DNA of 64,000 nucleotides, from assembly GCA_012842045.1 (NCBI GenBank), contig DUTP01000005.1, positions 11,332-75,331 of the forward strand, in the 5' to 3' direction. This stretch comes from Candidatus Dojkabacteria bacterium (GTDB lineage Bacteria > Patescibacteriota > Dojkabacteria > SC72). Below the pieces are notes generated by a model, which was not told the DNA's origin, did not search any database, and worked only from the letters and a program-made list of their open reading frames with translations. Made by a program: the position numbers and the translations under genes. How positions within the stretch are numbered: the stretch's first letter is position 1; each line of letters starts with the position of its first letter. Positions 3,695-56,246 of this stretch are shown here, piece after piece.

Positions 3695-5599
3695 TTATTT
3701 CTTCTCTATAAACAGTTCCTCAAACTCTTCTCTTGTAACAACTTCTTTCTCTAGTAGCAAGTCAACCAATTTCTCAACATACTCTTTCTGTTCTGTTAGA
3801 ACTTTCTTTGCATCCACATATGCTTCATCAATTAACCTCTTCACTTCAGCATCTATTGTCTTTGCTGTTTCCTCACTAAAGTCTCTGCCACCACCATATT
3901 TGTATCCTAGATGAGAAGTCTCATCCATATCACCATATTTAACCATACCTAACTTTTCACTCATACCGTATTTCATAACCATCTCTTTAGCTAATTCTGT
4001 TGCCTGTTCAATATCTGCAGAAGCACCTGAAGAAATATCATCCAAGAATATCTCCTCAGCAGCTCTACCACCAACACCACTTCTTAACCAAGCTAACATT
4101 TGAGCCTTGTAAAGAGTTTTTCTCTCTTTCTCTGGAATGTAAACTGTTACTCCTCCTGTCATACCTCTTGGAATAATGGAAACCTGCTCTACTGGGTCAG
4201 AACCTGGTGTAAATTTAGCAACAATCGCATGCCCTGCTTCATGATATGCTGTCTTCCTCAAATCCTCTTCCTCTGTCTCCCTATTTTTCTTTCTACCAAG
4301 TTTAACCTTTAAAAATGCTTCATCTATATCATCCTGCCCTATCTCCTTATCACCCTCCTGTGCAGCCATAATTGCTGCTTCATTGAGAATATTTTCTAAA
4401 TCTGCACCAGAATACCCTATTGTCTTCTTAGCAAGATCTTTTAGATTAACACCCTCTGCAAACTTCTTGTTCTTAGCATGCACCGCTAAAATCTCTTCTC
4501 TACCCTTAGCATCTGGCATATGAACTACAACCATCCTATCAAACCTACCAGGTCTTAAAATTGCTGGATCAAGCACATCTGGCCTGTTTGTAGCTGCAAG
4601 TACAATTACATTCTCCCTTTCTTCCAAACCATCCATCTCAACAAGAATTTGATTAAGAGTCTGTTCTCCTGCACCAGAATGAAGTACTGTACCTCTCTTC
4701 TTAGCAACAGCATCAATCTCATCGATAAAGATAATACATGGTGTAGTATTCCTTGCCTTCTTGAAAAGGTCTCTCACCCTTGAAGCACCAGCACCTACCA
4801 ACATCTCCTCAAATTCAGAACCAGATGTATGGAAAAATGGAACACCAGCTTCACCAGCGATAGCTTTTGCTAAGAGTGTCTTACCTGTACCCGGAGCACC
4901 AGCTAAAAGAACACCCCTTGGAATTCGTGCTCCCAAATCTCTGTATTTCTTAGGATTTTTAAGAAAATCCACAATCTCTGTTAATTCCTCTTTAACATCA
5001 TCAATACCTGCAACATCATCAAAAGATGTCCCTGTCTTCTTACCAAACAACATCCTAGCTTTACTCTCACCAAAATCCATAATCTTACCACCAGAAGCCT
5101 GCATATTTTTAATCATGAAAAACCCAAGTGTTACTGCTGCTGTTAAAAAGAGTAAAGTCAACACATCACCAAAAGATATCCCAACTTTCGGTTCATAGAA
5201 ATCATCTCCTAACTCTTTAATATCTATCTCTGCATCAGAGAGGACTTGATAAAAATCCATTCCTTGAGGTAATCTTGCATACTCTTTTCTAACAACATCC
5301 CTACCAGCAATCTTCTCTTCCTTTTCTAAAACAACCATATCATCTTTCAGAACAATCTTGTCATAGTCTTTCTCTGAAATACTTGTAATCACATTACTAA
5401 CGGAAACTTCCTCTCCTTTATAGGAAAGAAGACCATAAAGATACATACCTAGAGACACCAAAACTACTATACTTATAATAGCTGGGACACTAGGAAGCTT
5501 AACTCTTCTCCCAGTAGGCATCTTTCTCAAATCCACAACATATACATTCTTCTTATCTTCTGTCTTTTTATTCTTCTTTTTATCTTTCTGTTCGCTCAT
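3695..5599 (-). CDS. ftsH: ATP-dependent zinc metalloprotease FtsH
   Basis: Two N-terminal TMs, AAA+ Walker A ([23 protein letters not shown]), Walker B ([10 protein letters not shown]), second region of homology (SRR) and the zinc-binding HEAGHA motif. Lys-rich N-terminal extension. Confidence 0.95.
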
Positions 5600-5649: not shown

Positions 5650-5723
5650 TGGTGGGAAGTGGAATCGAACCACCGACCTTGGGTTTATGAATCCCATGCT
5701 CTAACCAACTGAGCTATCCCACC
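5650..5723 (-). tRNA. tRNA-Met (anticodon CAU), elongator type (G1-C72 pair); could alternatively be a lysidine-type tRNA-Ile2
   Basis: Reverse strand reads GGUGGGAUAGCUCAGUUGGUUAGAGCAUGGGAUUCAUAAACCCAAGGUCGGUGGUUCGAUUCCACUUCCCACCA. Full cloverleaf with anticodon loop UUCAUAA and T-loop GGUUCGAUUCC. CCA is encoded. Confidence 0.85.
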
Positions 5724-8677: not shown

Positions 8678-8751
8678 GGTTGCGGGGGCTGGATTCGAAC
8701 CAGCGACCTTTAGGTTATGAGCCTAACGAGCTTCCACTGCTCTACCCCGCG
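8678..8751 (-). tRNA. Initiator tRNA-fMet (anticodon CAU) with a C1·A72 mismatch
   Basis: Reverse strand reads CGCGGGGUAGAGCAGUGGAAGCUCGUUAGGCUCAUAACCUAAAGGUCGCUGGUUCGAAUCCAGCCCCCGCAACCA. The unpaired C1·A72 at the acceptor end is the hallmark of bacterial initiator tRNA. Anticodon loop CUCAUAA. Confidence 0.8.
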
Positions 8752-9441: not shown

Positions 9442-10329
9442 GTGGCTGATATAAACAATGTTAATTTTAAAGAAAAAGCAGAACTTTTTGCCAAGGATCT
9501 AACTTCCAAAGGAAGATCTGAGTCCACTGTTATCGCTTATGCAAAAGACATTGAGCAATTATTAAACTATCTGTCGAAAAGAGGAATTCTTTCTTTAGAT
9601 AAAGTAACAATCGAAGATTTAGAGGGATATAAACAAAACCTACAGGATAATAACTACACTCCAAAAAGTGTCTCTAGAAAAATAAATAGTACTAGAACTT
9701 TCTTCAGATTTCTTTTGGAAAACAACTTTGTAAGCGATAATGTTTCCGAGAAATTAGCACATCCTAGATTTGAAATTAAGCCACCCAGAGTACTAACAGA
9801 GATGGAGTACAGAGCATTAAGGGATGTTAGTAGAGTTGATATTAGACTCTACTCTATTGTAGAGATTCTTCTTCAAACAGGAATTAGAATTGGAGAATTA
9901 GCAGGACTTTCTCTTGATGATATTAGAAAGTCAAAGGATGGAAAGATTGATTTTCTTTACATTAAAGCTGCTGGTAGCCATCCAGCTAGAAAAGTTCCCC
10001 TAAACAAGTCTGCAAAGAAAGCATTAGATGATTATATTGCAGTTAGACCAGAGACAGAAGAAGATACTATTTTCATCACAAAGAATGGTAGACCTTTACT
10101 GGTAAGAAATATTAGAACTGCAATAGATAAATCTTTTGAGAGAGCTGGTATTAAGAATGCAAAGGTTAATGATCTTAGAAACACTTTTATTGCACATCAC
10201 TTAGCAAATGGTGTAAGTTTACCAACAGTATCAAAACTTGTTGGTCATAAAAGACTTTCTACTACAGAGAAATATCTGAATATTATTCCAGCTGTTGGTA
10301 AGGAAGAGAAAAACCTTAAGGAACTCTAA
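9442..10329 (+). CDS. Tyrosine site-specific recombinase, XerC/XerD-like (GTG start)
   Basis: 295 aa. N-terminal SAM-like core-binding domain. The C-terminus carries R...HxxR...Y catalytic residues (LRNTFIAHHLANG...GHKRLSTTEKYLNI). The size and motifs fit Xer-type recombinases better than phage integrases. Confidence 0.8.
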   Translation: MADINNVNFKEKAELFAKDLTSKGRSESTVIAYAKDIEQLLNYLSKRGILSLDKVTIEDLEGYKQNLQDNNYTPKSVSRKINSTRTFFRFLLENNFVSDNVSEKLAHPRFEIKPPRVLTEMEYRALRDVSRVDIRLYSIVEILLQTGIRIGELAGLSLDDIRKSKDGKIDFLYIKAAGSHPARKVPLNKSAKKALDDYIAVRPETEEDTIFITKNGRPLLVRNIRTAIDKSFERAGIKNAKVNDLRNTFIAHHLANGVSLPTVSKLVGHKRLSTTEKYLNIIPAVGKEEKNLKEL

Positions 10330-10507
10330 ATAATTAACTCTTAATACAGGTTCAGGTTACCACACTTACTTTCCCTTTCCCCATATGGACTATTACCGTT
10401 TTATTATGATTAGTTAACAAATTACAGGGTACTGTTTCCCTGTCACTATCTAACACCGAATCACAGTTTTGATTGAGGATTCTTCTCTTATATCAATGAA
10501 AAGTATG

Positions 10508-10583
10508 GGAATAGGTGGACTCGAACCACCGACTTCGGCTTTATAAGAACCGTGCTCTGACCTCCTGAGCTATATTCCCATAT
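10508..10583 (-). tRNA. tRNA-Ile with anticodon UAU (reads AUA)
   Basis: Reverse strand reads GGGAAUAUAGCUCAGGAGGUCAGAGCACGGUUCUUAUAAAGCCGAAGUCGGUGGUUCGAGUCCACCUAUUCCCA. Anticodon stem CGGUU/AGCCG, loop CUUAUAA (anticodon UAU), discriminator A73, U12-A23. CCA is not encoded. Confidence 0.75.
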
Positions 10584-10628: not shown

Positions 10629-13136
10629 TTAAAACATCGGTGGGAAAGCCGCAGAAGGTTGTGGTTGTTCAACTGGTTCTTCTTTCTCAAGCTGAGACCT
10701 GATACGAATGTCCTCCGCAACAACATTAACATCTCTCCCATATTTCATTCTAGACATATCTTTAATTACCTTCACCACTTCTTCGTTCACAGGTAAATCA
10801 AACCCTGCTTCAGGAAAAGCTTTGCCATAGCTAGTGTCAAGAGAAAAAGGTGCTGGATACGAACCATCAACAAGAAGTTTTGTATAATAATGAGCCATAC
10901 CTTGATTGACAATATCGCCCGCTGTGACATACCCCTCAAAAGGCGTTTCTAAGAACTGTGCATCTTCAGGACTACACCTCGCAATGTATAGAGAACCTAC
11001 ATTCCCAAATACAGCATTCTTAATGTCTTCTGGTAACTGTCCAATATATTGGTGTGCTAGAGTAAGATTAAGTCTGTATTTCCTAGCCTCAGAAAGAATA
11101 GAAGAAAACTCCTCTGTTGCAAAGTTTTGAAACTCATCCGCATAGAAAAAGAAGTCCCTTCTCTCGTACTCAGGAATATTCTCCCTACTTAGCGCTGCTG
11201 CAAGAAGTTTCTGAACAATCAATAAACCTAGAAAGGACATATTCTCATCACCAATTAAACCTTTAGAAAGATTTACAACCAAAATCTTACCTTCATCCAT
11301 CACTTGTCTAAAATCAAAAGAGGATGTGGACTGCCCAATTATATTTCTAATAGCTAAGTTCGTAGTAAACTTATCAAATTTTGAAATAAAGTATGTCAAA
11401 GACTCTGCTTTTGTCTTCTTGTCTGTCTTTGCTACCTGGTCAGTCCAATATCTAATAACTAATTCATCTTTAACCAATGGTAGCCAATGACTCATCACCC
11501 AGTCTTCATCTTGAAGAATTCTCACCACCTCAATCAAGGTCGAATCTGGCTTCGCCATGGCTGTTAACATAGAGTTTCTTACAGCCTGTTGAAATGCAGG
11601 ACCTGCATAACCTTGATTATTTGGATCAAAAAGCCTGATAAGTAAAGCAAGAAAACTATTTACAATTTGATGTTTATGTTGCTCATTATAATATTCCATG
11701 ATATTAAGACCAAACGGTCTTTCGAAATCACCAGCATTAAAATAGATAACATCTTCTGCTCTCTCTGCTGGGATTCTCTCCAACACCATATCAGCAGCAG
11801 AACCATGAGGATCTATAAAACAAACACCATCACCATTATATATATCCTGCATAATCATTCTGACCATCAACCAGGACTTACCTGTACCCGTCTGACCAAG
11901 TATGTATGCATGTCTCCTCCTATCATCTCTTTTTGAACATATCATCTTTTTCTTGCCTCTGAAATAGTTATTCCCAACCCAAATAGTATCCGGAGAATTA
12001 ATATCGGAACTTATCAAATTATCCGCCGGTAACTCTTTTGATAATAACCATTTGATATTAGGAGTTGTTATCTCTTTATTTGGGAAGTGATAGAGTGCAG
12101 CAAGCTCTTCAATATTTAATATACTTTTCTCGTCTTCTGGAGCTCTTCTATAAATTACATCATAGAGAAAGGCCTTTTGGTCTCTTTCTTTTACTTCCTT
12201 CTTTTGTAACTTATTAATCCCCGGATTGTTGTACTGCTCAAAGGCAGCAACTATATTATCCAAATGCATCTTTGCAATTGCTTTATCTGGAGCACTTGTA
12301 ATAATTCTAATCTCCGCAATCATCCCTGGTTTTGAGACCTTTTTATTAACAGCTTCCAATTTCTCTGGAGGTACATTTATTTTTTTCTTCTCTGGATCTG
12401 CATTATTCTTCTCTACATTCTGCACAAACCCTATACCATTCTCTTGCCATTTCGAATCTGTCGGAGATACAACCAATTGAACCAATGCCCCTTCACTCTC
12501 TGCCATTTTACTTAGAGTACTTAAGACATTAGCTGTTGGGTCACCTGTAAAACCTTCAGCCATCCTAATTGGGTAGTATGCATCTTCCTGCAAAACAAGC
12601 CTTGCACACTCAATCTCTGTGTTAGGAGCAAAGATATTGTATTCATCTACTACTGCGACATCAGCATCCTGATATGAACCCAGTATTTGCTTTTCAACCA
12701 AATCTGCATACTGACGAGGACAGTGAACAAAAAACCTTATCTCCCCTGGAAGACCAACCATCTCAAAACTAACACTGTTGCTTACATTGAACATCCCTGC
12801 TAAACCCTTACTCTTTCCTCCTATTCCATATATATTTGCAAACATCTGCTCTGCGGTACCTATCTCCACCTCATTATCCCTTAAAACCCTAACTTCTAAA
12901 AGAACTCCATCACTAGCTTTCTCGTTTCTATCTTTCTTCCTCAACTTCTTTCTTACTAAAAAGAATCCGCCAACACAGACAGCTATGAGAAGAAGAACAA
13001 ACGTTATCCAACCCCAAGGGATTTTAATATTCTCAATGCTTGTAGCGTTGTCAGCATATCTAATAGTACTACTATCTCGCTTTGGTAAATCAGGAAATTG
13101 TTTTTCTTGTGTATAGAGAATATTTTCAGAATGCAT
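10629..13136 (-). CDS. Membrane-anchored P-loop ATPase of the TraG/VirD4/TraD (TraG-D_C / DUF87-like) family with a ~400-aa N-terminal domain of unknown function
   Basis: TM near aa 40-60 (WGWITFVLLLIAVCVGGFFLV). Walker A is HAYILGQTGTGKSWLMVRM. A Walker B / coupling-protein C-terminal motif block follows: FFFYADEFQNFATEEFSSILSEARKYRLNLTLAHQYIGQL. Confidence 0.6.
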   Translation of the reverse strand: MHSENILYTQEKQFPDLPKRDSSTIRYADNATSIENIKIPWGWITFVLLLIAVCVGGFFLVRKKLRKKDRNEKASDGVLLEVRVLRDNEVEIGTAEQMFANIYGIGGKSKGLAGMFNVSNSVSFEMVGLPGEIRFFVHCPRQYADLVEKQILGSYQDADVAVVDEYNIFAPNTEIECARLVLQEDAYYPIRMAEGFTGDPTANVLSTLSKMAESEGALVQLVVSPTDSKWQENGIGFVQNVEKNNADPEKKKINVPPEKLEAVNKKVSKPGMIAEIRIITSAPDKAIAKMHLDNIVAAFEQYNNPGINKLQKKEVKERDQKAFLYDVIYRRAPEDEKSILNIEELAALYHFPNKEITTPNIKWLLSKELPADNLISSDINSPDTIWVGNNYFRGKKKMICSKRDDRRRHAYILGQTGTGKSWLMVRMIMQDIYNGDGVCFIDPHGSAADMVLERIPAERAEDVIYFNAGDFERPFGLNIMEYYNEQHKHQIVNSFLALLIRLFDPNNQGYAGPAFQQAVRNSMLTAMAKPDSTLIEVVRILQDEDWVMSHWLPLVKDELVIRYWTDQVAKTDKKTKAESLTYFISKFDKFTTNLAIRNIIGQSTSSFDFRQVMDEGKILVVNLSKGLIGDENMSFLGLLIVQKLLAAALSRENIPEYERRDFFFYADEFQNFATEEFSSILSEARKYRLNLTLAHQYIGQLPEDIKNAVFGNVGSLYIARCSPEDAQFLETPFEGYVTAGDIVNQGMAHYYTKLLVDGSYPAPFSLDTSYGKAFPEAGFDLPVNEEVVKVIKDMSRMKYGRDVNVVAEDIRIRSQLEKEEPVEQPQPSAAFPPMF

Positions 13137-19220: not shown

Positions 19221-19634
19221 TTAGAAGAAAATGTTTTTTACAAAATCTATAATATAAGGTAGAAAGATAATTATGCCTGTAAATACAGATACTAAAGCAC
19301 TAACTAGAACTGCTCCTGCACTAACATCTTTGGCATATTTAACATTAATCTTAAAATCTTGAGAGACTGTATCACAGAGAGCTTCAATTGCACTATTTAT
19401 ACTCTCGGATATTAAGACCATTGAGATTACTAAGCTGATAGCTATCCATTCAAAATGTTCTATCTTAAAAAACACCCCTGCAAGTATTACAATAGCTCCA
19501 ATTACAAGCTCTATCTTAAAATTTCTTTCATTCCTAAATATTAGTTTTATGCCATTCCTAGCATACCCCTGACTTTTGAAAAAACTCTCTGCTTTAAAAG
19601 ACTTGTTTTTCACTTTAGGATGATTGGAAACCAC
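19221..19634 (-). CDS. dgkA: Diacylglycerol/undecaprenol kinase DgkA
   Basis: 137 aa, three TMs. RNERNFKIELV...ESINSAIEALCDTV...KYAKDVSAGAVLVS matches the prokaryotic DAGK signature. Confidence 0.8.
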   Translation of the reverse strand: MVSNHPKVKNKSFKAESFFKSQGYARNGIKLIFRNERNFKIELVIGAIVILAGVFFKIEHFEWIAISLVISMVLISESINSAIEALCDTVSQDFKINVKYAKDVSAGAVLVSALVSVFTGIIIFLPYIIDFVKNIFF

Positions 19635-19950
19635 CGTAAATTATACCTAGAATTAACCTCGAGAGAATGGTAAACACTAAACCTATTATCGCCCATGTAA
19701 GAGTCCCCTGAGCTTTCTTAACTTTTTCAGGATCTCCTCCGGAAATCATCCACATGTAACCACCGTAGATAATGAAAGCAACAGAGAGTATACCAACTAC
19801 AGGGAAAATATAACTGACGATTTTGTTTAAGTACCCAACGATTATCGACGCACTCAACTCTTTGGGCCTAGGAATGTCTGCCTGAGCAAAAGACGGTAAA
19901 GAGAAGAACTTAAATAGTTGGTAGAAAAATTGCACTAGAGAAACATCCAT
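19615..19950 (-). CDS. Small two-TM protein, VirB2/TrbC-like T4SS-pilin-like family (paralog 5 of 5)
   Basis: Hydrophobic N-terminus, then ...FIIYGGYMWMISGGDPEKVKKAQGTLTWAIIGLVFTILSRLIL. It shares the GGY-x5-G-[DN][PE]EKV-K-A...AI[IV]GL motif with its four neighbours. Confidence 0.5.
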   Translation of the reverse strand: MDVSLVQFFYQLFKFFSLPSFAQADIPRPKELSASIIVGYLNKIVSYIFPVVGILSVAFIIYGGYMWMISGGDPEKVKKAQGTLTWAIIGLVFTILSRLILGIIYGGFQSS

Positions 19951-19952
19951 AA

Positions 19953-20231
19953 TTATTTAAATCCGATGAAATTATCTAGTACGAACTTCACAATGATGGG
20001 GGCTATAAACACAAGGACTAACCCTACCAAAGCAAAAACCAATGTTTTTGTAGCTTCTTTTACCTTATCTTCATCTCCTCGAGAGAAAATATACTTAAAG
20101 CCTGCAATAATTACTGCTATGACTACAAGTATTACAGATGCTGAAGTCGCAAAGTTTACAACATACTTGATAAACTCTGCTATATCATCAAAACCAGCTC
20201 GAGTTATTCCGTCGATAAAGAAAGATTCCAT
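19953..20231 (-). CDS. Small two-TM protein, VirB2/T4SS-pilin-like family (paralog 4 of 5)
   Basis: ...IAGFKYIFSRGDEDKVKEATKTLVFALVGLVLVFIAPIIV. Same architecture and motif as its neighbours. Confidence 0.5.
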   Translation of the reverse strand: MESFFIDGITRAGFDDIAEFIKYVVNFATSASVILVVIAVIIAGFKYIFSRGDEDKVKEATKTLVFALVGLVLVFIAPIIVKFVLDNFIGFK

Positions 20232-20250
20232 ATGTTAACCTTTTACTTAA

Positions 20251-20622
20251 TTAGCTTTTCGGTCCTAAGAAGTTCTTAATAACAAAGTTGACCAGAATTA
20301 CAGCGATAAAACATACAACTAGACCAACGATTGCCCATGTAAGAGTCTTTGTTGCTTTTTGAACTTTCTCCTCATTGCCACTAGCTGTGATATATGAATA
20401 ACCTGCGAAAATCAACATAACTACACATACCAAAGCTGCAATACCGATAGCCCAGTTAATCAAATTTCTAACAAATTGCATCAAATCTCGCTCACCTGTT
20501 GTATGTATATCGTCTATATAGCTCAATGCATCATCTGCTCCTGTTTGTGCAAATGTAGCAGAGGCCAGGTAAAGAGATGAACCAATAGAACTGATTCCTG
20601 CGATTGCTTTTGATAACTTCAT
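20251..20622 (-). CDS. Small two-TM protein, VirB2/T4SS-pilin-like family (paralog 3 of 5), with a signal peptide
   Basis: Signal peptide (MKLSKAIAGISSIGSSLYLASATFAQ), then ...FAGYSYITASGNEEKVQKATKTLTWAIVGLVVCFIAVILV. Confidence 0.5.
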   Translation of the reverse strand: MKLSKAIAGISSIGSSLYLASATFAQTGADDALSYIDDIHTTGERDLMQFVRNLINWAIGIAALVCVVMLIFAGYSYITASGNEEKVQKATKTLTWAIVGLVVCFIAVILVNFVIKNFLGPKS

Positions 20623-20689
20623 ACTTAAATGTTTATTAATATATTATATATTGCCTGATTATATCCAAGCACAAAGTAAAAATCAACTT

Positions 20690-21013
20690 TTAAAAACTTC
20701 CTTTTTCTTTTAAAGTATCGATAACAAGCTCCACTATAACTCTTGCAAGGAATACTATTATCATTCCAATAATGGCTGCTACTAGTACATTTCGACCTTT
20801 CTCCACCTTCTCTGGGTTGCCAGCAGACGTAATAAATGTATAGCCCCCATAGACTATCATTATTACTGCGACTAAACCAGAGAGAACTATTGCCCAGTTC
20901 AAAAATGGTACAACCTTAGCACTTACAACATCATCAACACTACTACCAGGTAGCTTAATCAACCATTTGCTACTACTAAATAGAGACCCTGTATCTATTC
21001 CTCCTTCACCCAT
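20690..21013 (-). CDS. Small two-TM protein, VirB2/T4SS-pilin-like family (paralog 2 of 5)
   Basis: ...VYGGYTFITSAGNPEKVEKGRNVLVAAIIGMIIVFLARVIV. Confidence 0.5.
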   Translation of the reverse strand: MGEGGIDTGSLFSSSKWLIKLPGSSVDDVVSAKVVPFLNWAIVLSGLVAVIMIVYGGYTFITSAGNPEKVEKGRNVLVAAIIGMIIVFLARVIVELVIDTLKEKGSF

Positions 21014-21366
21014 TATCGAAATGCATCTAAATCTAAAGTATCACTCAATAGTAAAAGTATACCAACAGACATTAAAACTACAAGTAGGCCAATAATTGCA
21101 TTTGTTATCACAGACTTAGCCTCCTGCAACTTCTCCGGGTTTCCTTGACTAGAAACCATCATGTATCCTCCATAAGAGAGTAATATTAACGCTGCAATTA
21201 TGGCTACTGGCATAGCAACCGCAACAATTCTTTGAACAAGAGTTTCCTCTGAATCTATTGACCCAACATCATCCACTAACAACTTCACATTATCTTCTAA
21301 TCCTAACCTCTGAGCATATACCTTCTGTACAAAGAAAAGATTTATTTTATCAAAAAATCTATCCAT
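21013..21366 (-). CDS. Small two-TM protein, VirB2/T4SS-pilin-like family (paralog 1 of 5)
   Basis: ...LSYGGYMMVSSQGNPEKLQEAKSVITNAIIGLLVVLMSVGIL. Its start overlaps the stop of the next paralog (ATGA at 21013). Confidence 0.5.
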   Translation of the reverse strand: MDRFFDKINLFFVQKVYAQRLGLEDNVKLLVDDVGSIDSEETLVQRIVAVAMPVAIIAALILLSYGGYMMVSSQGNPEKLQEAKSVITNAIIGLLVVLMSVGILLLLSDTLDLDAFR

Positions 21367-21377
21367 ACTTAATTATA

Positions 21378-24300
21378 CTACAAATCTGCATACTGACAAA
21401 TAGTATTGAAATCACAGAACCTACAACCAAAGCTAGGAGTAGCTGTAAACTCCCCTTTCTGTATCTTTTCAAGAACATCTAAAACACTTTCTTTTGCGAG
21501 CTCTCTTTTAGCTTGAGAAACATCTACCTCCGCCACATTACCACTTTCTACAAACACATACTTAGCCCCAACAACCTTCAACCCTAGCTTCTCTTCTGCT
21601 ACTAATGCATAGAGAGGAAGCTGTAAGTCCTTCTTTATATCAGCATCTGTTTTATCAGCCCCTGTCTTGTAGTCCACGATACAAACCTCTTTAATACCAT
21701 CCTGTTCTTGAACTAAATCTATCCTATCTATTTTCCCACTAAAGACTACTTCACCTAAATGAATAGCAAAGGACTCTTCTAACAGGAAAGGATTTTCATC
21801 TTCTGAGAACACCTTATCATAATATCTTTCCATTATTTCCTCACCTTCTCTCTTCCTAGCATTCTCCTGTTCTCTACTATCATACCCTTTACTTATCCAA
21901 TTCTTTTCATAGAAAGATAGTAAATCTTCCTTAGTCGGAGTATCTACTATTCCTCCCAAACCTTCCTTCGATTTTTTAAGTAAGGAGTAGAAATCATCTA
22001 AAGTATTATGTACACTACTTCCAAATGCAGTTGCTGGCGTACCTCTGGTAGGTATTCTAATCACATATGCATATTCATATTTCCGAGGACAACCTTCGTA
22101 TGTATTAAGTTGTGAATAGCTAAACCTTTTTACAAGATTTTTACTGTCTTCAATTAAAACATCTTGTTCTTGTCCTTTTTTCATATTTCTTAAACTAGTT
22201 ACATCATCCATCATATCATCTTCCTCTATCTTAGTAGTAAAATCTTCATCAACACTCCTATCTAAAACCTCCTGCAAGAAAATACTTGGCTTCTTTCTTC
22301 TCTTAGCTTCTCCATAGTATTGTGCTGCTGTAAAATATACCCTTTCTTTCGCTCTAGTAGCACCAACATAGAAAAGTCTTCTCTCCTCTTGCAAGTTTGA
22401 CTCTGCCTCACTAATATCTCTTAATATTGTTTCTTTAACTAATGTATCAGGAATTGGGAGAGCATCTTTCCTTGACCTACTAGGGAATCTATCAGAAACT
22501 AAATTTACTAAAAAGACAACTGGAAACTCCAACCCTTTTGCAGAGTGAACCGTCAAGATATTTACAGCATCTAACTCCTCCATACCAATCTGATCTACAA
22601 GTGGGGATTCTCCTGTTTGTATACTGTAATTTAGAAATTCTACATACTCATATATATTGCTATCTGGATTATCTTTTTCATAGTTCTTTACTAATTCAAA
22701 GAACTTATTAATATTACCTATTGCAAAAAGATTTTCAGATGTGTCCTCTTCTAAGAACTCATTTATATATCCACTTTCCATAACGAAGTCGTAAAGAATA
22801 TCTACAAGAGATTTTTGTTCCTTAATTTTCTTAGCACTTACATCTAGTAAAAGAAGCAAAGAAGAAACACCTGCAATAGCTTCTGGTGAAAGAACCTTAT
22901 CAATGATATTACTATCTATATTCTTAAAGTCCTGTTTTTCATCACTCCCTATTTTCACCTTCCATTCACTCTCAAGAAACTCCAACATTGACATTTTTTC
23001 TTCTTTAGCAAGCATTATTAACTCCATATATTCTCTTGGTGTAAGATTCCAAGTCTTCATTGTTAATAATCCAAACATTGAGACTTCATCTTTGTAATCA
23101 ACTAACACTCTTAGGAAAGAAATGATATTTTTAATTTCTGGTCTAAAGTAAAGACCTCTAGCTCCACCTAATTTGTACCTAATTCCCTTGTTTCTTAATG
23201 TTTGAATGAAGCCATCAGCATGTGTATTAGCTCTAACCAATATCGCTATATCCGAGAACTTGTATTTAGCTTCCTTTGTGCCATCAAGAGAATCTAAAAG
23301 TGTTGATTGACCCTTCTCATCAAAGGTTTGACTACTTCTATCCTCAATACTACCTCTTAATTCAGAATATCCTGTTAATTTCAATATTTCTTCAGCAACC
23401 CTCTCTGCTTCATAGTTTTCATTATGAGAAACCATGAGGTTAACTGCATTACTGTCCTCTGCAAAAGCAGCTTTTGCTACCAACTTTTTGTTAATACCTT
23501 CTGTAACTTCAAGCCTGTTTGGATCGTTATGCTTAATTAATGTATGTGAAGCATCTAATATTTCCTGTCTTGATCGGTAGTTTTCAGTAAGCACAATTTC
23601 CTGAGCATCTGGATACTCTTCTTTAAACTGCAATATATTAGATATGGCAGCACCCCTAAATTTGTAAATAGATTGGTCATCATCACCTACAACTGTTAAA
23701 CATGGTGTAGAGTTTTTGTCCTCTTTCTCACCAACCCCTTTTTTAAGTATGTTTACAAGTACATTTTGAGTATAGTTAGTGTCCTGAAACTCATCTACTA
23801 GTATATATTTGAATCTCTTTCTATATTTCTCTAAAATACTCTTCTTCTCTCTAAACAGCTTTATTGTAAGTAGAATTAGGTCTCCAAAGTCTAATCTAGA
23901 ATTTTCAATTTTAAGGTCTGCATACTTTTTGTATGCTTGTGCTAATTCATTACTCTTTACATATTCTTCTTTTTCAACATCAGTATTGTGAGGTAATTGT
24001 TTAGCATATTCTATATATTCTTCTGGAGAGACATCTTCATTTTGTAGTTTACTTATATGGTCTAAGAAATCATTTATAAACTTGGTAGGATTGCCTTTAG
24101 GAAGGAGTGTTTTAAAACCTAAATCATAGATATGTCTTCTTGTGAAGATATATGATTGAGCTGCACTCATTAGAGAGTAATCGCCATCAATACCAATATT
24201 GTATCCATCTTCTCTTAAGATTCTGTCACAGAAAGAGTGAAAAGTAGAGATGACTGGTTCATCGTAACCATATTCCATTTCCTGATCTACCCTTATCTGC

Positions 24301-24497
24301 ATCTCTTCTGCTGCTTTTTCTGTAAAAGTTAGAGCTAGTATCTCAGATGGTTTAGCCCATTCATTTTTAATTATATGTAGTATTCTCTGTGTTATTACTG
24401 CTGTTTTACCTGTACCAGCTCCTGCGATTATGAGTAGATCTCCATCTTTGTATTCTACAGCCTTCTTTTGATTTTCATTTAATCTAATCTGTCCCAT
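21378..24497 (-). CDS. UvrD/PcrA-family ATP-dependent helicase fused to a C-terminal Cas4/RecB-like Fe-S PD-(D/E)xK nuclease (compact AddA/AdnB-like)
   Basis: N-terminal Walker A (LLIIAGAGTGKTAVITQRILH) and UvrD motifs. The C-terminal ~250 aa carries GCPRKYEYAYV ... IDRIDLV ... IVDYKTG ... GCRFCDFNTIC, i.e. the RecB-nuclease D/E-K triad bracketed by a 4-Cys cluster as in AddB/Cas4. Confidence 0.8.
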   Translation of the reverse strand: MGQIRLNENQKKAVEYKDGDLLIIAGAGTGKTAVITQRILHIIKNEWAKPSEILALTFTEKAAEEMQIRVDQEMEYGYDEPVISTFHSFCDRILREDGYNIGIDGDYSLMSAAQSYIFTRRHIYDLGFKTLLPKGNPTKFINDFLDHISKLQNEDVSPEEYIEYAKQLPHNTDVEKEEYVKSNELAQAYKKYADLKIENSRLDFGDLILLTIKLFREKKSILEKYRKRFKYILVDEFQDTNYTQNVLVNILKKGVGEKEDKNSTPCLTVVGDDDQSIYKFRGAAISNILQFKEEYPDAQEIVLTENYRSRQEILDASHTLIKHNDPNRLEVTEGINKKLVAKAAFAEDSNAVNLMVSHNENYEAERVAEEILKLTGYSELRGSIEDRSSQTFDEKGQSTLLDSLDGTKEAKYKFSDIAILVRANTHADGFIQTLRNKGIRYKLGGARGLYFRPEIKNIISFLRVLVDYKDEVSMFGLLTMKTWNLTPREYMELIMLAKEEKMSMLEFLESEWKVKIGSDEKQDFKNIDSNIIDKVLSPEAIAGVSSLLLLLDVSAKKIKEQKSLVDILYDFVMESGYINEFLEEDTSENLFAIGNINKFFELVKNYEKDNPDSNIYEYVEFLNYSIQTGESPLVDQIGMEELDAVNILTVHSAKGLEFPVVFLVNLVSDRFPSRSRKDALPIPDTLVKETILRDISEAESNLQEERRLFYVGATRAKERVYFTAAQYYGEAKRRKKPSIFLQEVLDRSVDEDFTTKIEEDDMMDDVTSLRNMKKGQEQDVLIEDSKNLVKRFSYSQLNTYEGCPRKYEYAYVIRIPTRGTPATAFGSSVHNTLDDFYSLLKKSKEGLGGIVDTPTKEDLLSFYEKNWISKGYDSREQENARKREGEEIMERYYDKVFSEDENPFLLEESFAIHLGEVVFSGKIDRIDLVQEQDGIKEVCIVDYKTGADKTDADIKKDLQLPLYALVAEEKLGLKVVGAKYVFVESGNVAEVDVSQAKRELAKESVLDVLEKIQKGEFTATPSFGCRFCDFNTICQYADL

Positions 24498-30658: not shown

Positions 30659-31129
30659 ATGAAAGGAAAGAAATATGAGGGTTTCTCTCTTATCGAGATC
30701 CTAGTAGTAGTAGCATTAATCATTATTCTTGCTGCTATTACAATTATTGCAATCAACCCTGCAAAGAACTTTAGGGACACTCGAAATGCACAGAGAGGTT
30801 CTGATGTAAATGCTATTCTTAATGCAGTTACACAGTATATCTCTGAGGAGGGAAGAACACTTGCAAGCATTGGGACTATCTTAGACTGTGAAGATGCACA
30901 GGGTGATCCACAGGCTACAAAGATTGGTACAAGCACAGACGCTGGGTACATTGACCTTACCCCAACACTTGTAACACAAGCAGACCTAATCGTTGCAATT
31001 CCTATAGACCCATTGGATGCATATGATGAGGAAGATACTGGTTACACTATCTGTGCAACACAAGGAGGAAGAGTACAAGTAGCTGCTCCTCACACAGAAG
31101 GAAAGGATCCTATTGTTGTAAAGAGATAG
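30659..31129 (+). CDS. Type IV pilin (prepilin with class III signal peptide)
   Basis: MKGKKYEGFSLIEILVVVALIIILAAITIIAI is the prepilin peptidase cleavage/methylation motif (G/FSLIE) followed by a hydrophobic alpha1 helix. It is the first gene of the pil operon. Confidence 0.8.
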   Translation: MKGKKYEGFSLIEILVVVALIIILAAITIIAINPAKNFRDTRNAQRGSDVNAILNAVTQYISEEGRTLASIGTILDCEDAQGDPQATKIGTSTDAGYIDLTPTLVTQADLIVAIPIDPLDAYDEEDTGYTICATQGGRVQVAAPHTEGKDPIVVKR

Positions 31130-31190
31130 GTTAGTTAAGTAAACAAATATATAAAGTGAGTATCAGATAGCTCTTAGCTGTCCAAGAGTT

Positions 31191-32606
31191 ATGGTAGAAC
31201 TATTACAATTACTAGATGATGTTCTTAAGAAGAAGATTAACATATCTGACTTTCTTGACGCATTAGTCGTAGATGCTCTCAAAAGCGGAGCATCTGATAT
31301 TCACATAGAATCTAAGGAGGATGATATTCTTTTAGTTAGATACAGGGTTGATGGAGTATTGAGAGATATAATCTCAATTGGTCCAGAACTAAAAGATACT
31401 CTCCTCTTTATCATCAAAGTAAGAGCTAAGTTAAGAACAGATGTCCATCTTGCACCACAGGATGGGAAGATCCCTTTTGTTGTTAAAAAAGCTGACATTG
31501 ATGGTGATAAAGAGAAGATTAAGAAAGAGGAAGAGAATGATAAAGACCAAGAGAAAGATGATGTAGAAGAACCCATTGAGGAAAAAGAGAAAAAGAAGAA
31601 AGAAAAAGAGGAGGAGGAACAAGAGAAGAAAGTACTAAACAGGTTGGAAGCATTCAAAGCAGAAGAAAAAGATACCTACAATGTTGATGCTAGAGTATCA
31701 ATACTTCCTGTATCATACGGTGAGAAAGTTGTTATTAGGCTATTAACACAAGCTAACCGATCTCACTCTTTAGCTGATCTAGGTTTTGAAGAACATGACC
31801 TAGCTGAACTAGAGAAAGCATACACACAACCATATGGACTAATATTAATTACAGGACCTACAGGTAGTGGTAAAACCACCACACTCTACTCTATTCTAAA
31901 GATATTAAATACTCGGGAGGTCAATATAACAACAATTGAAGACCCTGTTGAGTACAGTATCGAAGGTGTAAATCATATTCAAATTAACGTAAAAAGTGAT
32001 TTAACCTTTGCTACTGGACTTAGATCTATTTTAAGACAAGATCCAAATGTCATTATGGTCGGCGAGATTAGAGATACAGAAACAGCTAGAATTACTGTTA
32101 ACTCAGCACTAACAGGTCACTTAGTATTATCTACTCTCCACGCAAACGACTCTGTAAGTGCTGTACCAAGATTGATAGATATGGGTATTGAACCCTTTTT
32201 AATCGCATCTACATTAAATATTGTCGTAGCACAAAGACTCGCAAGAAAACTTTGTCCCGATTGTAAGAAACCGTGCTCTCTAGAAAAAGATAAAGAGATA
32301 AAAGAAATGTTAAAGATAAGACCAGATGTAGCTAAATATATAAAACCAACAGATAAATTCTACAAAGCTGTTGGTTGTGATAAATGTAACAACGTGGGTT
32401 TAAAAGGCAGAATTGGAATATATGAAGTACTAGTAATTAACAAAACAATGAGAGATACAATAATAAAGAATCCTACAATGGATGATATATTCCAAACAGC
32501 AAAGAAATCTGGTTTTAAACTAATGGTAGAAGATGCTGTAGACAAACTTAAAAAAGGATATATTGATATACCTGAATTACTTAAGGTTATTGCAATTAAA
32601 GATTAA
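31191..32606 (+). CDS. pilB: Type IV pilus assembly ATPase PilB (GspE family)
   Basis: Walker A (LITGPTGSGKTTTLYSIL), Asp box, Walker B (VIMVGEIRD), His box (LVLSTLHAND) and a C-terminal tetracysteine (CPDC...CDKC). Contains an acidic low-complexity insert (EKKKKEKEEEEQEKK). Confidence 0.9.
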   Translation: MVELLQLLDDVLKKKINISDFLDALVVDALKSGASDIHIESKEDDILLVRYRVDGVLRDIISIGPELKDTLLFIIKVRAKLRTDVHLAPQDGKIPFVVKKADIDGDKEKIKKEEENDKDQEKDDVEEPIEEKEKKKKEKEEEEQEKKVLNRLEAFKAEEKDTYNVDARVSILPVSYGEKVVIRLLTQANRSHSLADLGFEEHDLAELEKAYTQPYGLILITGPTGSGKTTTLYSILKILNTREVNITTIEDPVEYSIEGVNHIQINVKSDLTFATGLRSILRQDPNVIMVGEIRDTETARITVNSALTGHLVLSTLHANDSVSAVPRLIDMGIEPFLIASTLNIVVAQRLARKLCPDCKKPCSLEKDKEIKEMLKIRPDVAKYIKPTDKFYKAVGCDKCNNVGLKGRIGIYEVLVINKTMRDTIIKNPTMDDIFQTAKKSGFKLMVEDAVDKLKKGYIDIPELLKVIAIKD

Positions 32607-33757
32607 TGGCAGAAGAAGAAAAAATAAAAGAGGAGAAAATTCAAGAAGAGAAACCTAAAAAAGAAAAACCAAAGAAGGAAGAACCTAGAGAGAAGCTTTT
32701 GAAAAAATTACAGGGAGTAAAGGTCTCTGTGCCAAACCTTTTAGTTTCTATAAAATCTTTAGCTTCATTACTTAAAGCTGGTATACCTCTCTCTGAAACA
32801 ATGGAAACCATTGCAGGCCAATCAAGCGATCAAAATCTTAATGCAGTATATGAGTATATCGCTGGAGAAGTCAGAAAAGGAGTCACATTAGCAGAAGCAA
32901 TGAAACTTTTCCCCAAGGTCTTTCCAGAAACAATTTCATCTGTAGTAGAAGCTGGTGAACAAGGTGGTTCTCTAGAACAAAACCTTATCTTCATCTCAGA
33001 TACAATTAAAAAAGAATGGGAAATTAACAAGAAGTTAAAAGGTGCAATTATCTACCCTATTATTATCGTTTGTATGGTTTTCATGGTTTTCCTTGCCATG
33101 ATATTTATCGTATTCCCAAAGTTAGAGACAATGTTTGCAGCTTTTGAAAATATTCCTGCGTTTACACAAGCAATTTTAAGTATTTCCAGATATATTCGAG
33201 CAAATTGGTATTTTATCTTTGGTGGTGTTGGTGTTCTGGTAGTACTTTTTATAGTTTTCTTAAAAACAAAACCCGGGAAAAAATTTAAAGGTTGGCTTGG
33301 GATTAACTTCCCTATTCTTAAAAATCTCTTCATCAACAACATTCTATCCTCTTTCTCAAGAACTCTGAGTGTGTTGCTAGCAAGTGGTATACCTATCGCT
33401 AAGTCTATGAAAATTGCAGCAAACACAACAAGTAACTATATCTATGCAGAGGTGTTAGAAGATGTATACAAGAGTATAGAAGCTGGTGATTCGCTATCTC
33501 TTTCATTAGGAAAGCATCCGAAATATTTTAATAAATCTTTTATTAAAATGGTTGAAATAGGAGAAGCCAGTGGATCATTAGAAGACAATCTTATGTACCT
33601 ACATGAATATTATGCAGAAGAGGTCGGAGAGATGAGTGCAAATATCGTTACAGTTGTAGAACCTGTTCTACTCATCTTGGTAGGTCTTATCATCGGAAGC
33701 TTAGTAGTAACTATCCTCATGCCTATTTACCAATTAATGGGTTCTATCAATGCTTAA
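32606..33757 (+). CDS. pilC: Type IV pilus platform protein PilC (GspF family)
   Basis: Duplicated GspF domains with three TMs. Start overlaps the pilB stop (TAATGG). Confidence 0.85.
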   Translation: MAEEEKIKEEKIQEEKPKKEKPKKEEPREKLLKKLQGVKVSVPNLLVSIKSLASLLKAGIPLSETMETIAGQSSDQNLNAVYEYIAGEVRKGVTLAEAMKLFPKVFPETISSVVEAGEQGGSLEQNLIFISDTIKKEWEINKKLKGAIIYPIIIVCMVFMVFLAMIFIVFPKLETMFAAFENIPAFTQAILSISRYIRANWYFIFGGVGVLVVLFIVFLKTKPGKKFKGWLGINFPILKNLFINNILSSFSRTLSVLLASGIPIAKSMKIAANTTSNYIYAEVLEDVYKSIEAGDSLSLSLGKHPKYFNKSFIKMVEIGEASGSLEDNLMYLHEYYAEEVGEMSANIVTVVEPVLLILVGLIIGSLVVTILMPIYQLMGSINA

Positions 33758-34211
33758 AAAACATAACAAAGAAAAAAAACTAAAAGGATTCTCTCTTTTA
33801 GAAATAATTGTAACTGTAGGTATTCTACTTTTGTTTTCTGGAATAATATTTCCTTTTACAATTACTAAGATCAAGAGAACACAACTACAAAGTTATGCTT
33901 CAGAGATAGCTGCGGATATATATTTTCAACAACAAGAAGCTAGAAACAGAAACCAGCCCACTGGTGTTTTTCTTGAAAGTGGACAGTACACTCTTTTTAC
34001 AGGAGAGACTTATGCAACAGCTACAGAAAAAGACAAGAAAGAGCTCAAAAAAGGAACTTACTTATCATCCATTATGTTAAATGATGGAACTTCTATTCGT
34101 TTTGAGGGGAGTTCTTTTAAACCTCTGACATACGGGTCTTTTCTTTTAAGTAATGGGAGAAGTAGCGTCAAGATAGAGATAAATCAAGAAGGGTTAGTAG
34201 AGTATGAATAG
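33750..34211 (+). CDS. Pseudopilin / minor pilin (prepilin N-terminal motif)
   Basis: KKLKGFSLLEIIVTVGILLLFSGII is a class III signal peptide. Confidence 0.7.
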   Translation: MLKKHNKEKKLKGFSLLEIIVTVGILLLFSGIIFPFTITKIKRTQLQSYASEIAADIYFQQQEARNRNQPTGVFLESGQYTLFTGETYATATEKDKKELKKGTYLSSIMLNDGTSIRFEGSSFKPLTYGSFLLSNGRSSVKIEINQEGLVEYE

Positions 34212-36147
34212 TATTAGAAAGAAATACAAAGCATTTAGTCTAGCTGAATTAATTATAGCAGTAGCTATCTTCGGTTTAATTTCTGCTTTCTTGACACTAC
34301 TTGTGGTTGATTCAACAAGAGCATATGAAAACACATATGCTAGATCTAAAGCTACAAGTCTTGTAAAAGAGATATACTCTACTCTGAAATTGTTAAAAAC
34401 TGATAACTGGTTTGAAGTAACCAAGCATACAGGATTAGGACCTAAGCATTTAATATTCGAAGAAGGAGAGTACAAGATAGCTGATGGAGAAAAGGTTGAA
34501 GGCTTACTAACCTACTTCTTCACCGTTGATTTAGCACAGAGGGATACAGATGGAAAGATTGTAGAAGAAGGTGGTAATACTGACGCACATACAAGAGTAA
34601 TCTCTGTTAATATTAAATGGAAGGACAGGGTTGGTAAAGAACACGTTATAAATCCAAAACTCTATCTTAATGACTGGCATGTTAATACTTTCACCTTCAC
34701 TTCTATGGAAGATTTTCAGCCAGGTGGACATACTGACACAACGGCATCCGAGAGTTTTACTGGTGGTGAATTAAGATTACAATCAGTCTTCTATCCTAAC
34801 TGGTGCAGACCTGAGAGATCTATGAGTAGTTATGATATCCCAGGAGAAGCATATGCGAAATCAATATTCGCTGAAATTGGATATGCATATCTAGGAACGA
34901 GAGGTGGAGATGTTGGTGATCCTTTCACTAAATTAAGAATTGAAGGTGTTAACCCTACAACACTAACAGTAGAGGGAACATTCCAAGGATATCGTATTAA
35001 TGACATCTTCGTAGAAGGAGACTATGCATATCTCGCAACATCAGATGATGAGAAAGAGATTGTCATCTTAGATATCTCCTCAGTCCCTTACCAAGAGGTA
35101 GGACATGTAAATGCACCAGACCAATGGAATAATGATGCTAGGAGTGTGTTTGTAAAAGGTAATGTCGGATATCTAACACAGAGTACGTATGTAAGAAGTT
35201 TTGATTTATCCTCTAAAACAGGTTCTAGGCCTATTCTTAATAGCATATCTATCAGTCTTATCCCCTGGATAGCATCAGTCTCACAGATACATGTTAAAGA
35301 TAATTATCTTTATGCATCACTAGACTGGGACTGGTACGAATTAGCAATTCTTGATGTTAGTAATCCCAGTAAAATGAAGATACTCTCTAGAACAAGTGTA
35401 AACAATCAACAAGTATATGATATGTATGTTTCAGATGATGGAAACAGAGTGTATTTTGGAACAAACTACTCCTCAAGTGAACACGAATTTTTCATAATTG
35501 ACACAAGTGTAAAGAATATTAAATGTCCTATTATTGCATCTAGAAAAGTAGATATGACTGTTAGAGGTATATCTGTTGTTGAAGATGGAAATGTTGTTGT
35601 ATTAGTAGGGACATCAGGTCAAGAATATCAAGTATTTTCTATCACCGACGAAACAAATCCTGTAAAGTGTGGAGGTATGAGCATACCTTCTGGTGTCTAC
35701 GATATCCAATCTGTCCTAGATCCACAAGGGAATGCTTTCTCGTACATCTTAACCGGTGATAAACATCAAGAATTTACAATAATCAGGGGAGGTCCCGGAG
35801 GTGGAGATGAAGATACAGGTAATGGTTTTGTACCAACGGGAAGTTACATTTCTGCAATTCAGGATTCTAAAACTTCAAACTCCACTTATTATACATTAAG
35901 CATTCAAACAAACATCCCAGAAGGAACTCAAATGGGCATTCAGATAAGGATTGGTGATAGTCCAACTATGCAAGGTATACCATGGAAAGGTCCAGATGGA
36001 ACAAACGGAACATACTACTCCACAAGTGGCACTTACTCTTTACCACCAGGAACTAAAGGAAGATATTTCCAATACAAAGTAGACTTTACAGGTGATACTG
36101 TTAACTCACCAATGCTTGAAGAATTAATTATTAGCTATGAGAAATAA
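34204..36147 (+). CDS. Large minor pilin / pilus-tip protein (647 aa) with a prepilin N-terminus and a repeat-rich beta-propeller-like ectodomain
   Basis: KAFSLAELIIAVAIFGLISAFL prepilin motif. Downstream are repeated segments of the LVIVD/beta-propeller type (YAYLATSDDEKEIVILDIS, LYASLDWDWYELAILDVS, VYFGTNYSSSEHEFFIIDTS). Confidence 0.6.
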   Translation: MNSIRKKYKAFSLAELIIAVAIFGLISAFLTLLVVDSTRAYENTYARSKATSLVKEIYSTLKLLKTDNWFEVTKHTGLGPKHLIFEEGEYKIADGEKVEGLLTYFFTVDLAQRDTDGKIVEEGGNTDAHTRVISVNIKWKDRVGKEHVINPKLYLNDWHVNTFTFTSMEDFQPGGHTDTTASESFTGGELRLQSVFYPNWCRPERSMSSYDIPGEAYAKSIFAEIGYAYLGTRGGDVGDPFTKLRIEGVNPTTLTVEGTFQGYRINDIFVEGDYAYLATSDDEKEIVILDISSVPYQEVGHVNAPDQWNNDARSVFVKGNVGYLTQSTYVRSFDLSSKTGSRPILNSISISLIPWIASVSQIHVKDNYLYASLDWDWYELAILDVSNPSKMKILSRTSVNNQQVYDMYVSDDGNRVYFGTNYSSSEHEFFIIDTSVKNIKCPIIASRKVDMTVRGISVVEDGNVVVLVGTSGQEYQVFSITDETNPVKCGGMSIPSGVYDIQSVLDPQGNAFSYILTGDKHQEFTIIRGGPGGGDEDTGNGFVPTGSYISAIQDSKTSNSTYYTLSIQTNIPEGTQMGIQIRIGDSPTMQGIPWKGPDGTNGTYYSTSGTYSLPPGTKGRYFQYKVDFTGDTVNSPMLEELIISYEK

Positions 36148-36622
36148 AAAGAAGATCAAATTAAAAGGACTTACATTACTGGAGACACTACTCTATGTAG
36201 CTCTTTTCTCTATGATTCTCTTTGTAATTATAAACTTCATGCTTGGTACACAAGAAGCAACTAGAAGAAATATGCAAAGAAGCTCTGTTCACCAATCAGC
36301 ACAGTTTGTCAAACAACACTTCGATTACTCTTTTCAGAAGGTAATACAAGTAAGTGAAGGAAGTAGTATTTTTAATAATGATAATGGGAAATTAACATTA
36401 ATTTTCTCAGACACAAGTAAATCATATACAATCTCAAACAATAGGATATATTTTAATGATATTGCTATCACACCAAAAAACATATCTGCAACAAAATTAC
36501 ATTTTGAACCCATATATAGTAAGAAGGGTGTAGTCATGGCAATTAAAGTGTCGACAAAACTAGTAACTAAAAAAGACCCAAAGATATTTGAAGAGATAAC
36601 TTACCTTGCTGTTATTAGATAG
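36137..36622 (+). CDS. Pseudopilin / minor pilin
   Basis: LKGLTLLETLLYVALFSMILFVII is a prepilin-like N-terminus. Overlaps the upstream stop. Confidence 0.6.
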   Translation: MRNKKKIKLKGLTLLETLLYVALFSMILFVIINFMLGTQEATRRNMQRSSVHQSAQFVKQHFDYSFQKVIQVSEGSSIFNNDNGKLTLIFSDTSKSYTISNNRIYFNDIAITPKNISATKLHFEPIYSKKGVVMAIKVSTKLVTKKDPKIFEEITYLAVIR

Positions 36623-36625
36623 AAA

Positions 36626-53568: not shown

Positions 53569-53834
53569 ACCAAGTATTTTTAATAATATTAAGAGACAGT
53601 TTGCTTGGAGGGCAGTCTACGGTCGATTGGGACTCTGTTGAACATTATATTCAATTTCTAAAAAATGTGGATATCTTTTACAAGATATCTTAAAAAGAAT
53701 TACTAGTACAAGATTTTTAAAAGTGAGTTTTATCTCTAGTAATTCTAGAGAGGAAAAGTCTTTTTGAAAACAGATTTGCTAAATACTTTTAGTTACTATA
53801 TAATCAGCAAGATTTCAGATAGTCAGTTCAAAAT

Positions 53835-54017: not shown

Positions 54018-54022
54018 AAGAT

Positions 54023-54596: not shown

Positions 54597-54689
54597 TAAT
54601 TTGCAAAGATTTTTAAGGGTTGATATAATAAAAATATCATGAGGGAGGGAAGGTTGTAGATTAAATGCTACAAGCAACACTCCCATTTT

Positions 54690-56197: not shown

Positions 56198-56246
56198 CAT
56201 ATCAGTTTCTGCCCTGACTAAGAAATTAATTTTAAAATTATTTTTT

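Follow-up and report, generated by a model that had tools for sequence, protein, structure and literature searches.

A conserved tRNA-Ile(UAU) gene as the probable lysidine-independent AUA decoder of Candidatus Dojkabacteria

The lysidine-forming enzyme TilS is regarded as essential, and about 98% of annotated genomes of bacteria are taken to conserve it; in 2013, the tilS-less species that had been counted numbered nine. One exception is Mycoplasma mobile, which lacks tilS and has a tRNA-Ile2(UAU) (Silva et al. 2006; Taniguchi et al. 2013, PMC3575796). Transfer RNAs with a TAT anticodon were recorded for 19 species in tRNADB-CE and for 17 genomes in tRNAscan-SE 2.0, and a 2026 preprint still referred to tRNA-Ile(UAU) as "rare cases". 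No link of lysidine or tilS with the candidate phyla radiation (CPR) was encountered in the literature searched. The present study deals with a tRNA-Ile(UAU) gene located in a 64,000-nucleotide stretch of DNA (hereafter the window) from Candidatus Dojkabacteria bacterium (assembly GCA_012842045.1, contig DUTP01000005.1, positions 11,332 to 75,331). The original prediction, made from the letters of the window, had described such systems as documented in only a few lineages. This is correct as far as the literature is concerned but understated here, where the gene proved to be fixed in 73 of 73 Dojkabacteria loci. It is most likely the dedicated AUA decoder of this group, operating independently of lysidine in the manner of M. 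mobile.

The gene lies at 10506..10579 on the minus strand and measures 74 nucleotides, without an encoded CCA end; ARAGORN, Rfam, synteny and covariation all pointed to it. It had initially been placed at 10508-10583 with no strand given, so that the tRNA itself was real and its coordinates were shifted by 2-4 nucleotides. ARAGORN reported tRNA-Ile(tat) at 10505..10580 (-), among seven RNA genes in the window, and the match to Rfam RF00005 at 10506..10579 (-) scored 68.6 bits (E = 7.7e-13) with zero non-canonical pairs flagged. Both programs thus agreed on a canonical tRNA with a genomic UAU anticodon, as had been proposed. In its RNA sequence, GGGAAUAUAGCUCAGGAGGUCAGAGCACGGUUCUUAUAAAGCCGAAGUCGGUGGUUCGAGUCCACCUAUUCCCA, the anticodon (10543..10545, minus strand; ATA on the plus strand) is carried by the loop CUUAUAA (C32 U33 U34 A35 U36 A37 A38), on top of a stem composed of C27-G43, G28-C42, G29-C41, U30.G40 and U31-A39. 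The cloverleaf was 100% paired on 31 distinct orthologous sequences and 11 of its 21 pairs were changed on both sides. Since none of 500 shuffles reached this pairing and covariation, the fold lies far beyond chance. Compensatory changes were found in the acceptor stem (A5-U68 to G5-C68) and in the T stem (GGUGG/CCACC, GAUGG/CCAUC and GGCAG/CUGCC), whereas no variation was seen among the 31 sequences in the anticodon loop or in G29-C41, U30.G40 and U31-A39.

The body of this tRNA resembles that of isoleucine acceptors. Its closest E. coli match was tRNA-Ile (79% over positions 8-65) and its D and T arms resemble those of E. coli tRNA-Ile1. Both A73 and U12-A23, on which the first assignment had been based, were present in the sequence, together with A35, U36, A37, A38, G16, U20 and G3-C70. 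The last pair is an isoleucine indicator under the rule of Silva et al. 2006, in which G3, A3, C70 and T70 play this role. The E. coli determinants C4-G69 and C29-G41 were absent and replaced by A4-U69 and G29-C41. Taken as a whole, these features support a functional tRNA with an Ile-like body.

Conservation of the gene was followed through the adjoining gene, which codes for an ATPase of 835 amino acids. Homologues of this protein were aligned and used as syntenic anchor, which gave 80 orthologous loci in species genomes of the GTDB; seven of them end within the ATPase gene and the other 73 include the tRNA flank. A tRNA with a TAT anticodon was found 40-600 bp downstream of the ATPase gene in each of these 73 species loci (one copy is truncated by a contig end, with TTATAA still visible), and a CAT variant at the same position in none. 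The tRNA was also kept in clades in which the neighbouring ATPase is just 39-47% identical to that of the window. T34 was invariant in all 31 distinct sequences of the orthologues. The surrounding gene order was likewise conserved and reads smpB, a gene for a 107-amino-acid protein, ATPase, tRNA-Ile(UAU), xer, divIC, tRNA-fMet, efp, tRNA-Met and ftsH; it was complete as far as ftsH in about 46 species loci. These results show that the UAU tRNA is canonical, selectively maintained and fixed throughout the class in all sampled Dojkabacteria. Four loci (L007, L012, L066 and L043) displayed 3-6 kb of extra DNA directly downstream of the tRNA and before xer, while in most species the recombinase gene lies within about 1 kb of the tRNA; the DNA just downstream of tRNA-Ile(UAU) may therefore be an insertion hot spot.

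The codon that this tRNA is expected to read is a common one. The 64 open reading frames (ORFs) of the window, totalling 19,078 codons, contain 618 ATA, 761 ATT, 219 ATC and 437 ATG, so that ATA amounts to 32.4 per 1000 codons and 38.7% of the isoleucine codons. In the classification of Muraski et al. 2025, such usage counts as high and is near that of Borrelia. Housekeeping genes are no exception, with 10 ATA codons in ftsH, 4 in smpB and 3 in efp. Because the signal from E. coli orthologues was too weak, the meaning of the codon was examined by a codon-exchange test within the lineage, on 74 orthologous ATPase genes. In the columns where the window gene has ATA, the orthologues displayed ATA in 36.8%, ATT in 32.8%, ATC in 8.7% and ATG in less than 1.1% of cases. 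All 30 columns with at least 90% ATH mix ATA with ATT or ATC, and ATA occurs in only one of the nine columns with at least 90% ATG. AUA is thus exchanged with AUU and AUC and not with AUG, which shows that it is a frequent isoleucine codon, synonymous with the two others and kept distinct from AUG. The check on AUA usage suggested at the outset therefore turned out in favour of the proposal.

The window contains two CAU tRNAs, as does the conserved cluster, and both could be assigned. One of them, at 8680..8751 (-) and with an encoded CCA, is the initiator tRNA-fMet: it displays the expected C1.A72 as well as A11-U24 and G12-C23, which are complete discriminators of fMet tRNAs according to Silva et al. 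2006, and A29G30G31/C39C40U41 in the anticodon stem. It is conserved in the same gene order among the related loci. The other, at 5650..5723 (-) immediately upstream of ftsH, has the predicted G1-C72 together with U3-A70 and A31.A39. It is taken to be the elongator tRNA-Met because its syntenic counterpart in outgroup loci L081 and L082 (ATPase 44-45% identical) resembles the E. coli elongator tRNA-Met: the tRNA in that slot has C3-G70, and its T arm and the 3' strand of its acceptor are nearly equal to those of the E. coli molecule. The assignment is one of orthology with the outgroup and not a proof. As a separate observation, U3-A70 and the A31.A39 mismatch at the bottom of the anticodon stem occur in the orthologues of this tRNA in all Dojkabacteria, while the outgroup has A31.G39 and C3-G70.

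The DNA of this genome that was read comprises the window and about 13.6 kb of flanks, of which 10 kb lie on the low side and about 3.6 kb on the high side. No TilS or isoleucyl-tRNA synthetase (IleRS) domains were present among the 64 ORFs of the window, and neither tilS nor ileS was found in the flanks. Likewise, tblastn searches with E. coli TilS and IleRS gave no match in 83 related loci (1.3 Mb) or in 120 metagenome loci; the sole weak PP-loop match, in L081, was to an MnmA-like protein. This putative tRNA 2-thiouridylase is encoded at 21148..22272 of L081, a few kb from the tRNA cluster, and the same outgroup locus also carries a tRNA-Ile(UAU). In many bacteria, ftsH is preceded by tilS-hpt. 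The site upstream of ftsH was accordingly a candidate location for tilS, and was rejected since it is occupied by efp and a DHH phosphoesterase gene; tRNA-Met and efp precede ftsH in about 46 related species loci, with no tilS at the site.

Published protein-family counts for about 2177 CPR genomes point in the same direction (Méheust et al. 2019, Supplementary Data 1, PMC6744442), although the main text of that paper is silent on lysidine. TilS (K04075, PF01171) was recorded in 123 CPR versus 866 non-CPR bacterial genomes and classed as "depleted", as were MnmG (K03495; 5 versus 897) and TruA (K06173; 5 versus 958). Equally distributed families were TsaD (K01409; 1942 versus 995), MnmA (K00566; 1495 versus 948) and, for reference, EF-Ts (1983 versus 1046). 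The original interpretation therefore stood with respect to the UAU tRNA, the isoleucine meaning of AUA and the assignment of the CAU tRNAs, while the loss of tilS that it implied is supported in the accessible DNA (window, flanks and 1.3 Mb of relatives' loci) and is deduced for the genome as a whole.

How such a system would operate can be proposed as follows. The tRNA is probably transcribed with the ATPase gene or just behind it, at the end of an smpB-ATPase unit. This is suggested by the fact that no sigma-70-like promoter was found in the 49-nucleotide gap that separates the tRNA from the stop codon of the ATPase gene, and that a terminator-like hairpin followed by a T-rich tail lies at 10424..10443 (-), about 60 nucleotides past the tRNA 3' end (1 such hairpin found versus 0.2 expected); transcription of the unit probably stops at this hairpin. 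The CCA end would then be added post-transcriptionally and the tRNA charged by IleRS. In a system of the M. mobile type, this enzyme would be expected to recognise U34 by means of an Arg or Lys at the position of the conserved Trp in its Zn-binding domain, or else to be of the eukaryote type. AUA would be read by U34-A pairing, so that no conversion of C34 to lysidine would be needed, and the genome would be expected to contain neither tilS nor tRNA-Ile2(CAU), like that of M. mobile. Since CPR genomes almost never carry MnmG, U34 is probably devoid of xm5 modification and may even be unmodified. A37 is probably N6-threonylcarbamoyladenosine (t6A), since CPR genomes do carry TsaD. With a U34 lacking xm5, the rejection of AUG would rest on the tRNA body, the ribosome or both, and the invariant U30.G40/U31-A39 anticodon stem is a candidate discriminator at the level of the tRNA body. 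Because every sampled relative keeps tRNA-Ile(UAU), AUA, a common codon, is most likely read without lysidine throughout the Dojkabacteria lineage.

Several points weigh against this reading. Charging by IleRS, the state of U34 and A37 and the fidelity mechanism are deduced rather than observed. The E. coli orthologues were weakly informative on the meaning of AUA, with I, L or V at 15 and M at 3 of 34 aligned AUA positions. The CPR counts stem from family clustering, so that they would overlook a divergent TilS assigned to some other family, and the 123 CPR genomes that do carry TilS belong to lineages that the table does not specify. Both tilS and a third CAU tRNA could lie outside the accessible DNA, which represents just about 78 kb of a genome of about 750 kb. 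Coexistence of the two systems is moreover documented, for instance in Lactobacillus plantarum/casei, Cyanothece and Ferrimonas. The last three points would suit redundant decoding, with tilS and tRNA-Ile2(CAU) located elsewhere and the UAU tRNA acting as a second AUA reader. Yet, TilS is missing from about 94% of the CPR genomes in the published table, the 1.3 Mb of related DNA gave zero matches to it, and the ftsH locus was free of tilS in about 46 species loci. Above all, strict retention of the UAU tRNA with an invariant anticodon in 73 of 73 species, deeply divergent clades included, is the pattern of an essential and not of a redundant gene. Redundancy is therefore considered unlikely.

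Another difficulty resides in the CAU tRNA at 5650..5723, which has U3-A70 instead of the C3-G70 typical of tRNA-Met and found its best E. coli match in tRNA-Phe, which is uninformative. It also shares U12-A23 and A73 with isoleucine tRNAs, and could in principle be a lysidine-dependent tRNA-Ile2, the elongator tRNA-Met being encoded outside the window. This is very improbable, since the tRNA lacks every isoleucine indicator of Silva et al. 2006, its outgroup counterpart (after the initiator and before ftsH) has C3-G70 and is close to E. coli elongator tRNA-Met, and lysidine requires TilS, which is depleted in CPR. The position of tRNA-Ile(UAU) next to a tyrosine recombinase gene (9442..10329, plus strand), the 3-6 kb inserts beside it in some relatives and the frequency of the same anticodon arm in phage-like tRNA arrays might further evoke an accessory tRNA, horizontally acquired from a phage or mobile element and external to core translation. 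Synteny largely refutes this view, to which hardly any credence is given: the UAU tRNA is solitary and not part of an array, and throughout the class it is found at a single conserved chromosomal position, together with which it has diverged. The recombinase was rejected as a mobile-element integrase, being a conserved core gene of the XerC/D type in a fixed position, the product of which is 71-100% identical among some 60 species loci of Dojkabacteria, against about 50% identity in outgroups L081 and L082. A dedicated, lysidine-independent AUA decoder thus remains the preferred interpretation of tRNA-Ile(UAU), although the tRNA family may have an ancient phage origin.

The anticodon arm was also searched for beyond the anchored loci, in a metagenome scan in which either C or T was allowed at position 34. 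At least 120 stretches were obtained, and T34 was found in 120 of the 120 matches listed. Among these listed matches, 40 displayed the ATPase/xer synteny, including lineages with an ATPase 36-51% identical to that of the window, and 36 were phage-like tRNA arrays (with Arg-UCU, Leu-UAA, Lys-UUU and Asn tRNAs), the rest being short contigs. For two distant lineages of the same synteny, a protein search gave homologues that were again mostly labelled Dojkabacteria. In a viral collection, the arm with T34 occurred in 25 contigs and its C34 form in none. A CAT version of the same tRNA body, sought as a candidate, was absent from the genome loci, from the metagenome matches listed (at least 120 having been obtained) and from the viral collection. 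Dojkabacteria and phage arrays display an identical arm, GUU-CUUAUAA-AGC, with U30.G40 and U31-A39; the first of these pairs has been described as a signature of eukaryal tRNAs-Ile. The arm thus accompanies the UAU anticodon in tRNA bodies that are unrelated to each other, and it may serve tRNA identity or the fidelity of decoding; this is to be taken as a lead and not as a result.

Tentatively, these observations can be joined into a broader scheme, which is possible but on the doubtful side: lysidine-free AUA decoding would be ancestral and universal in Dojkabacteria, and possibly in most CPR, where both TilS and MnmG are lacking by the published counts, and would involve one tRNA-Ile(UAU) family with the arm as determinant. 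The hallmark of this family would be an arm composed of G29-C41, U30.G40, U31-A39, C32 and A38, which would allow a U34 without xm5 modification to read AUA and not AUG. If so, a sizeable part of bacterial diversity would decode AUA in a eukaryote-like way. The trait itself may extend over much of the CPR.

As to the genomic context, the ATPase gene at 10629..13136 (-) codes for a DUF8128 protein (HHX99548.1) resembling the coupling proteins of type IV secretion systems (T4SS), and the tRNA begins 49 nucleotides past its stop codon. Its homologues, 66-91% identical, are named Candidatus Dojkabacteria or candidate division WS6 at NCBI. The ftsH gene at 3695..5599 (-) is preceded by tRNA-Met, efp and the DHH phosphoesterase gene, and its product (HHX99542.1) is, like HHX99548.1, labelled "Candidatus Dojkabacteria bacterium". 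The organism therefore belongs to the CPR (Patescibacteria). The G+C content of the window is 29-37%, and its gene content includes T4SS-type pilins, DUF5657, the DUF8128 ATPase, a type IV pilus cluster, smpB, efp and ftsH. A phage or plasmid nature of the window was considered and discarded, since the genes are CPR housekeeping genes and a single weak phage match (to tRNA-Met) was recorded.

Some further features of the window deserve mention. An origin-type region (50562..56723) contains dnaN, dnaA, rnpA, yidC and jag/KhpB, and near 54-56 kb there is a switch in the sign of the GC skew. After jag come an O-antigen-ligase-like gene and a tRNA-Ser, and not mnmE/mnmG as in many bacteria, which agrees with MnmG being nearly absent from CPR in the published counts. 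The transfer-messenger RNA (tmRNA) at 41933..42354 (-; Rfam, 108.9 bits) has a predicted tag of 32 residues, which is unusually long and ends with NFASV and not with the usual ...LAA; the Rfam alignment placed a long insertion within the tag reading frame. Five small genes of the T4SS-pilin type (PF18895/TrbC) were located at 19615..21366, beside a gene (21378..24497) for a 1039-amino-acid helicase of the UvrD/PcrA type with a C-terminal PD-(D/E)XK (Cas4-like) nuclease domain. Finally, a complete type IV pilus cluster (30659..37622) comprises PilB- and PilC-like genes, pseudopilins and a prepilin peptidase.

In every sampled species of the class, a UAU tRNA was present, and AUA accounts for 39% of the isoleucine codons. 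This combination of a class-wide UAU tRNA with a high AUA load indicates that the alternative solution can be stable over deep evolutionary time. It also provides a natural sequence set (tRNA, IleRS and ribosome, in hundreds of metagenome-assembled genomes) for studying how U34 avoids AUG when MnmG is lacking. In practical terms, completeness checks based on tRNA-Ile2 or TilS will fail for Dojkabacteria genomes, and the results have a bearing on TilS as an antibacterial target and on phage-carried tRNAs.

Compared with the canonical system of TilS and tRNA-Ile2(LAU), the problem solved is the same, namely reading AUA as isoleucine without reading AUG. Yet, the canonical solution needs a CAU tRNA and TilS, whereas here UAU is written in the DNA and tilS was absent from the DNA read. 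Lactobacillus plantarum/casei differ in that tRNA-Ile(CAU), tRNA-Ile(UAU) and tilS coexist; neither tilS nor a CAU tRNA of the Ile2 type was found in the DNA read here. The phage tRNAs-Ile(UAU) share an identical anticodon arm with the Dojkabacteria gene but occur in arrays and have different acceptor stems, while the latter is a single core gene, set in a chromosomal gene order that about 70 species share. A genomic UAU anticodon is also found in eukaryotic cytoplasmic tRNA-Ile(UAU), in which U34 and U36 become pseudouridine, and in the archaeal tRNA-Ile3(UAU) of Nanoarchaeum and Korarchaeum. In contrast to these, the Dojkabacteria gene is intron-less, forming a continuous 74 nucleotides with no interruption of the anticodon loop, and its body is bacterial, with D and T arms like those of E. 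coli tRNA-Ile; just U30.G40 is held in common with the eukaryal type.

Bifidobacterium and Neorickettsia are closer, since in both a clade-level swap of the lysidine system for a UAU tRNA took place and tilS is lacking. Their IleRS is of the eukaryote type; in Dojkabacteria, U30.G40 hints in that direction and is to be regarded as a lead only. The strongest likeness is with M. mobile, where a genomic TAT tRNA-Ile is the AUA decoder in an AT-rich, reduced genome, accompanied by just an initiator and an elongator CAU tRNA; in Dojkabacteria, the lysidine pathway is probably absent as well. The unmodified U34, the Arg865 of IleRS and the ribosome-based rejection of AUG were proven by experiment in M. 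mobile, while the Dojkabacteria system is known from sequence. The two also differ in that M. mobile keeps MnmE/G, whereas MnmG is nearly absent from CPR genomes. Last, in M. mobile the trait is that of a single species in a tilS-positive group, whereas in Dojkabacteria it is fixed in an entire candidate class. The type of system is therefore a known one, and what is new here is its scale.

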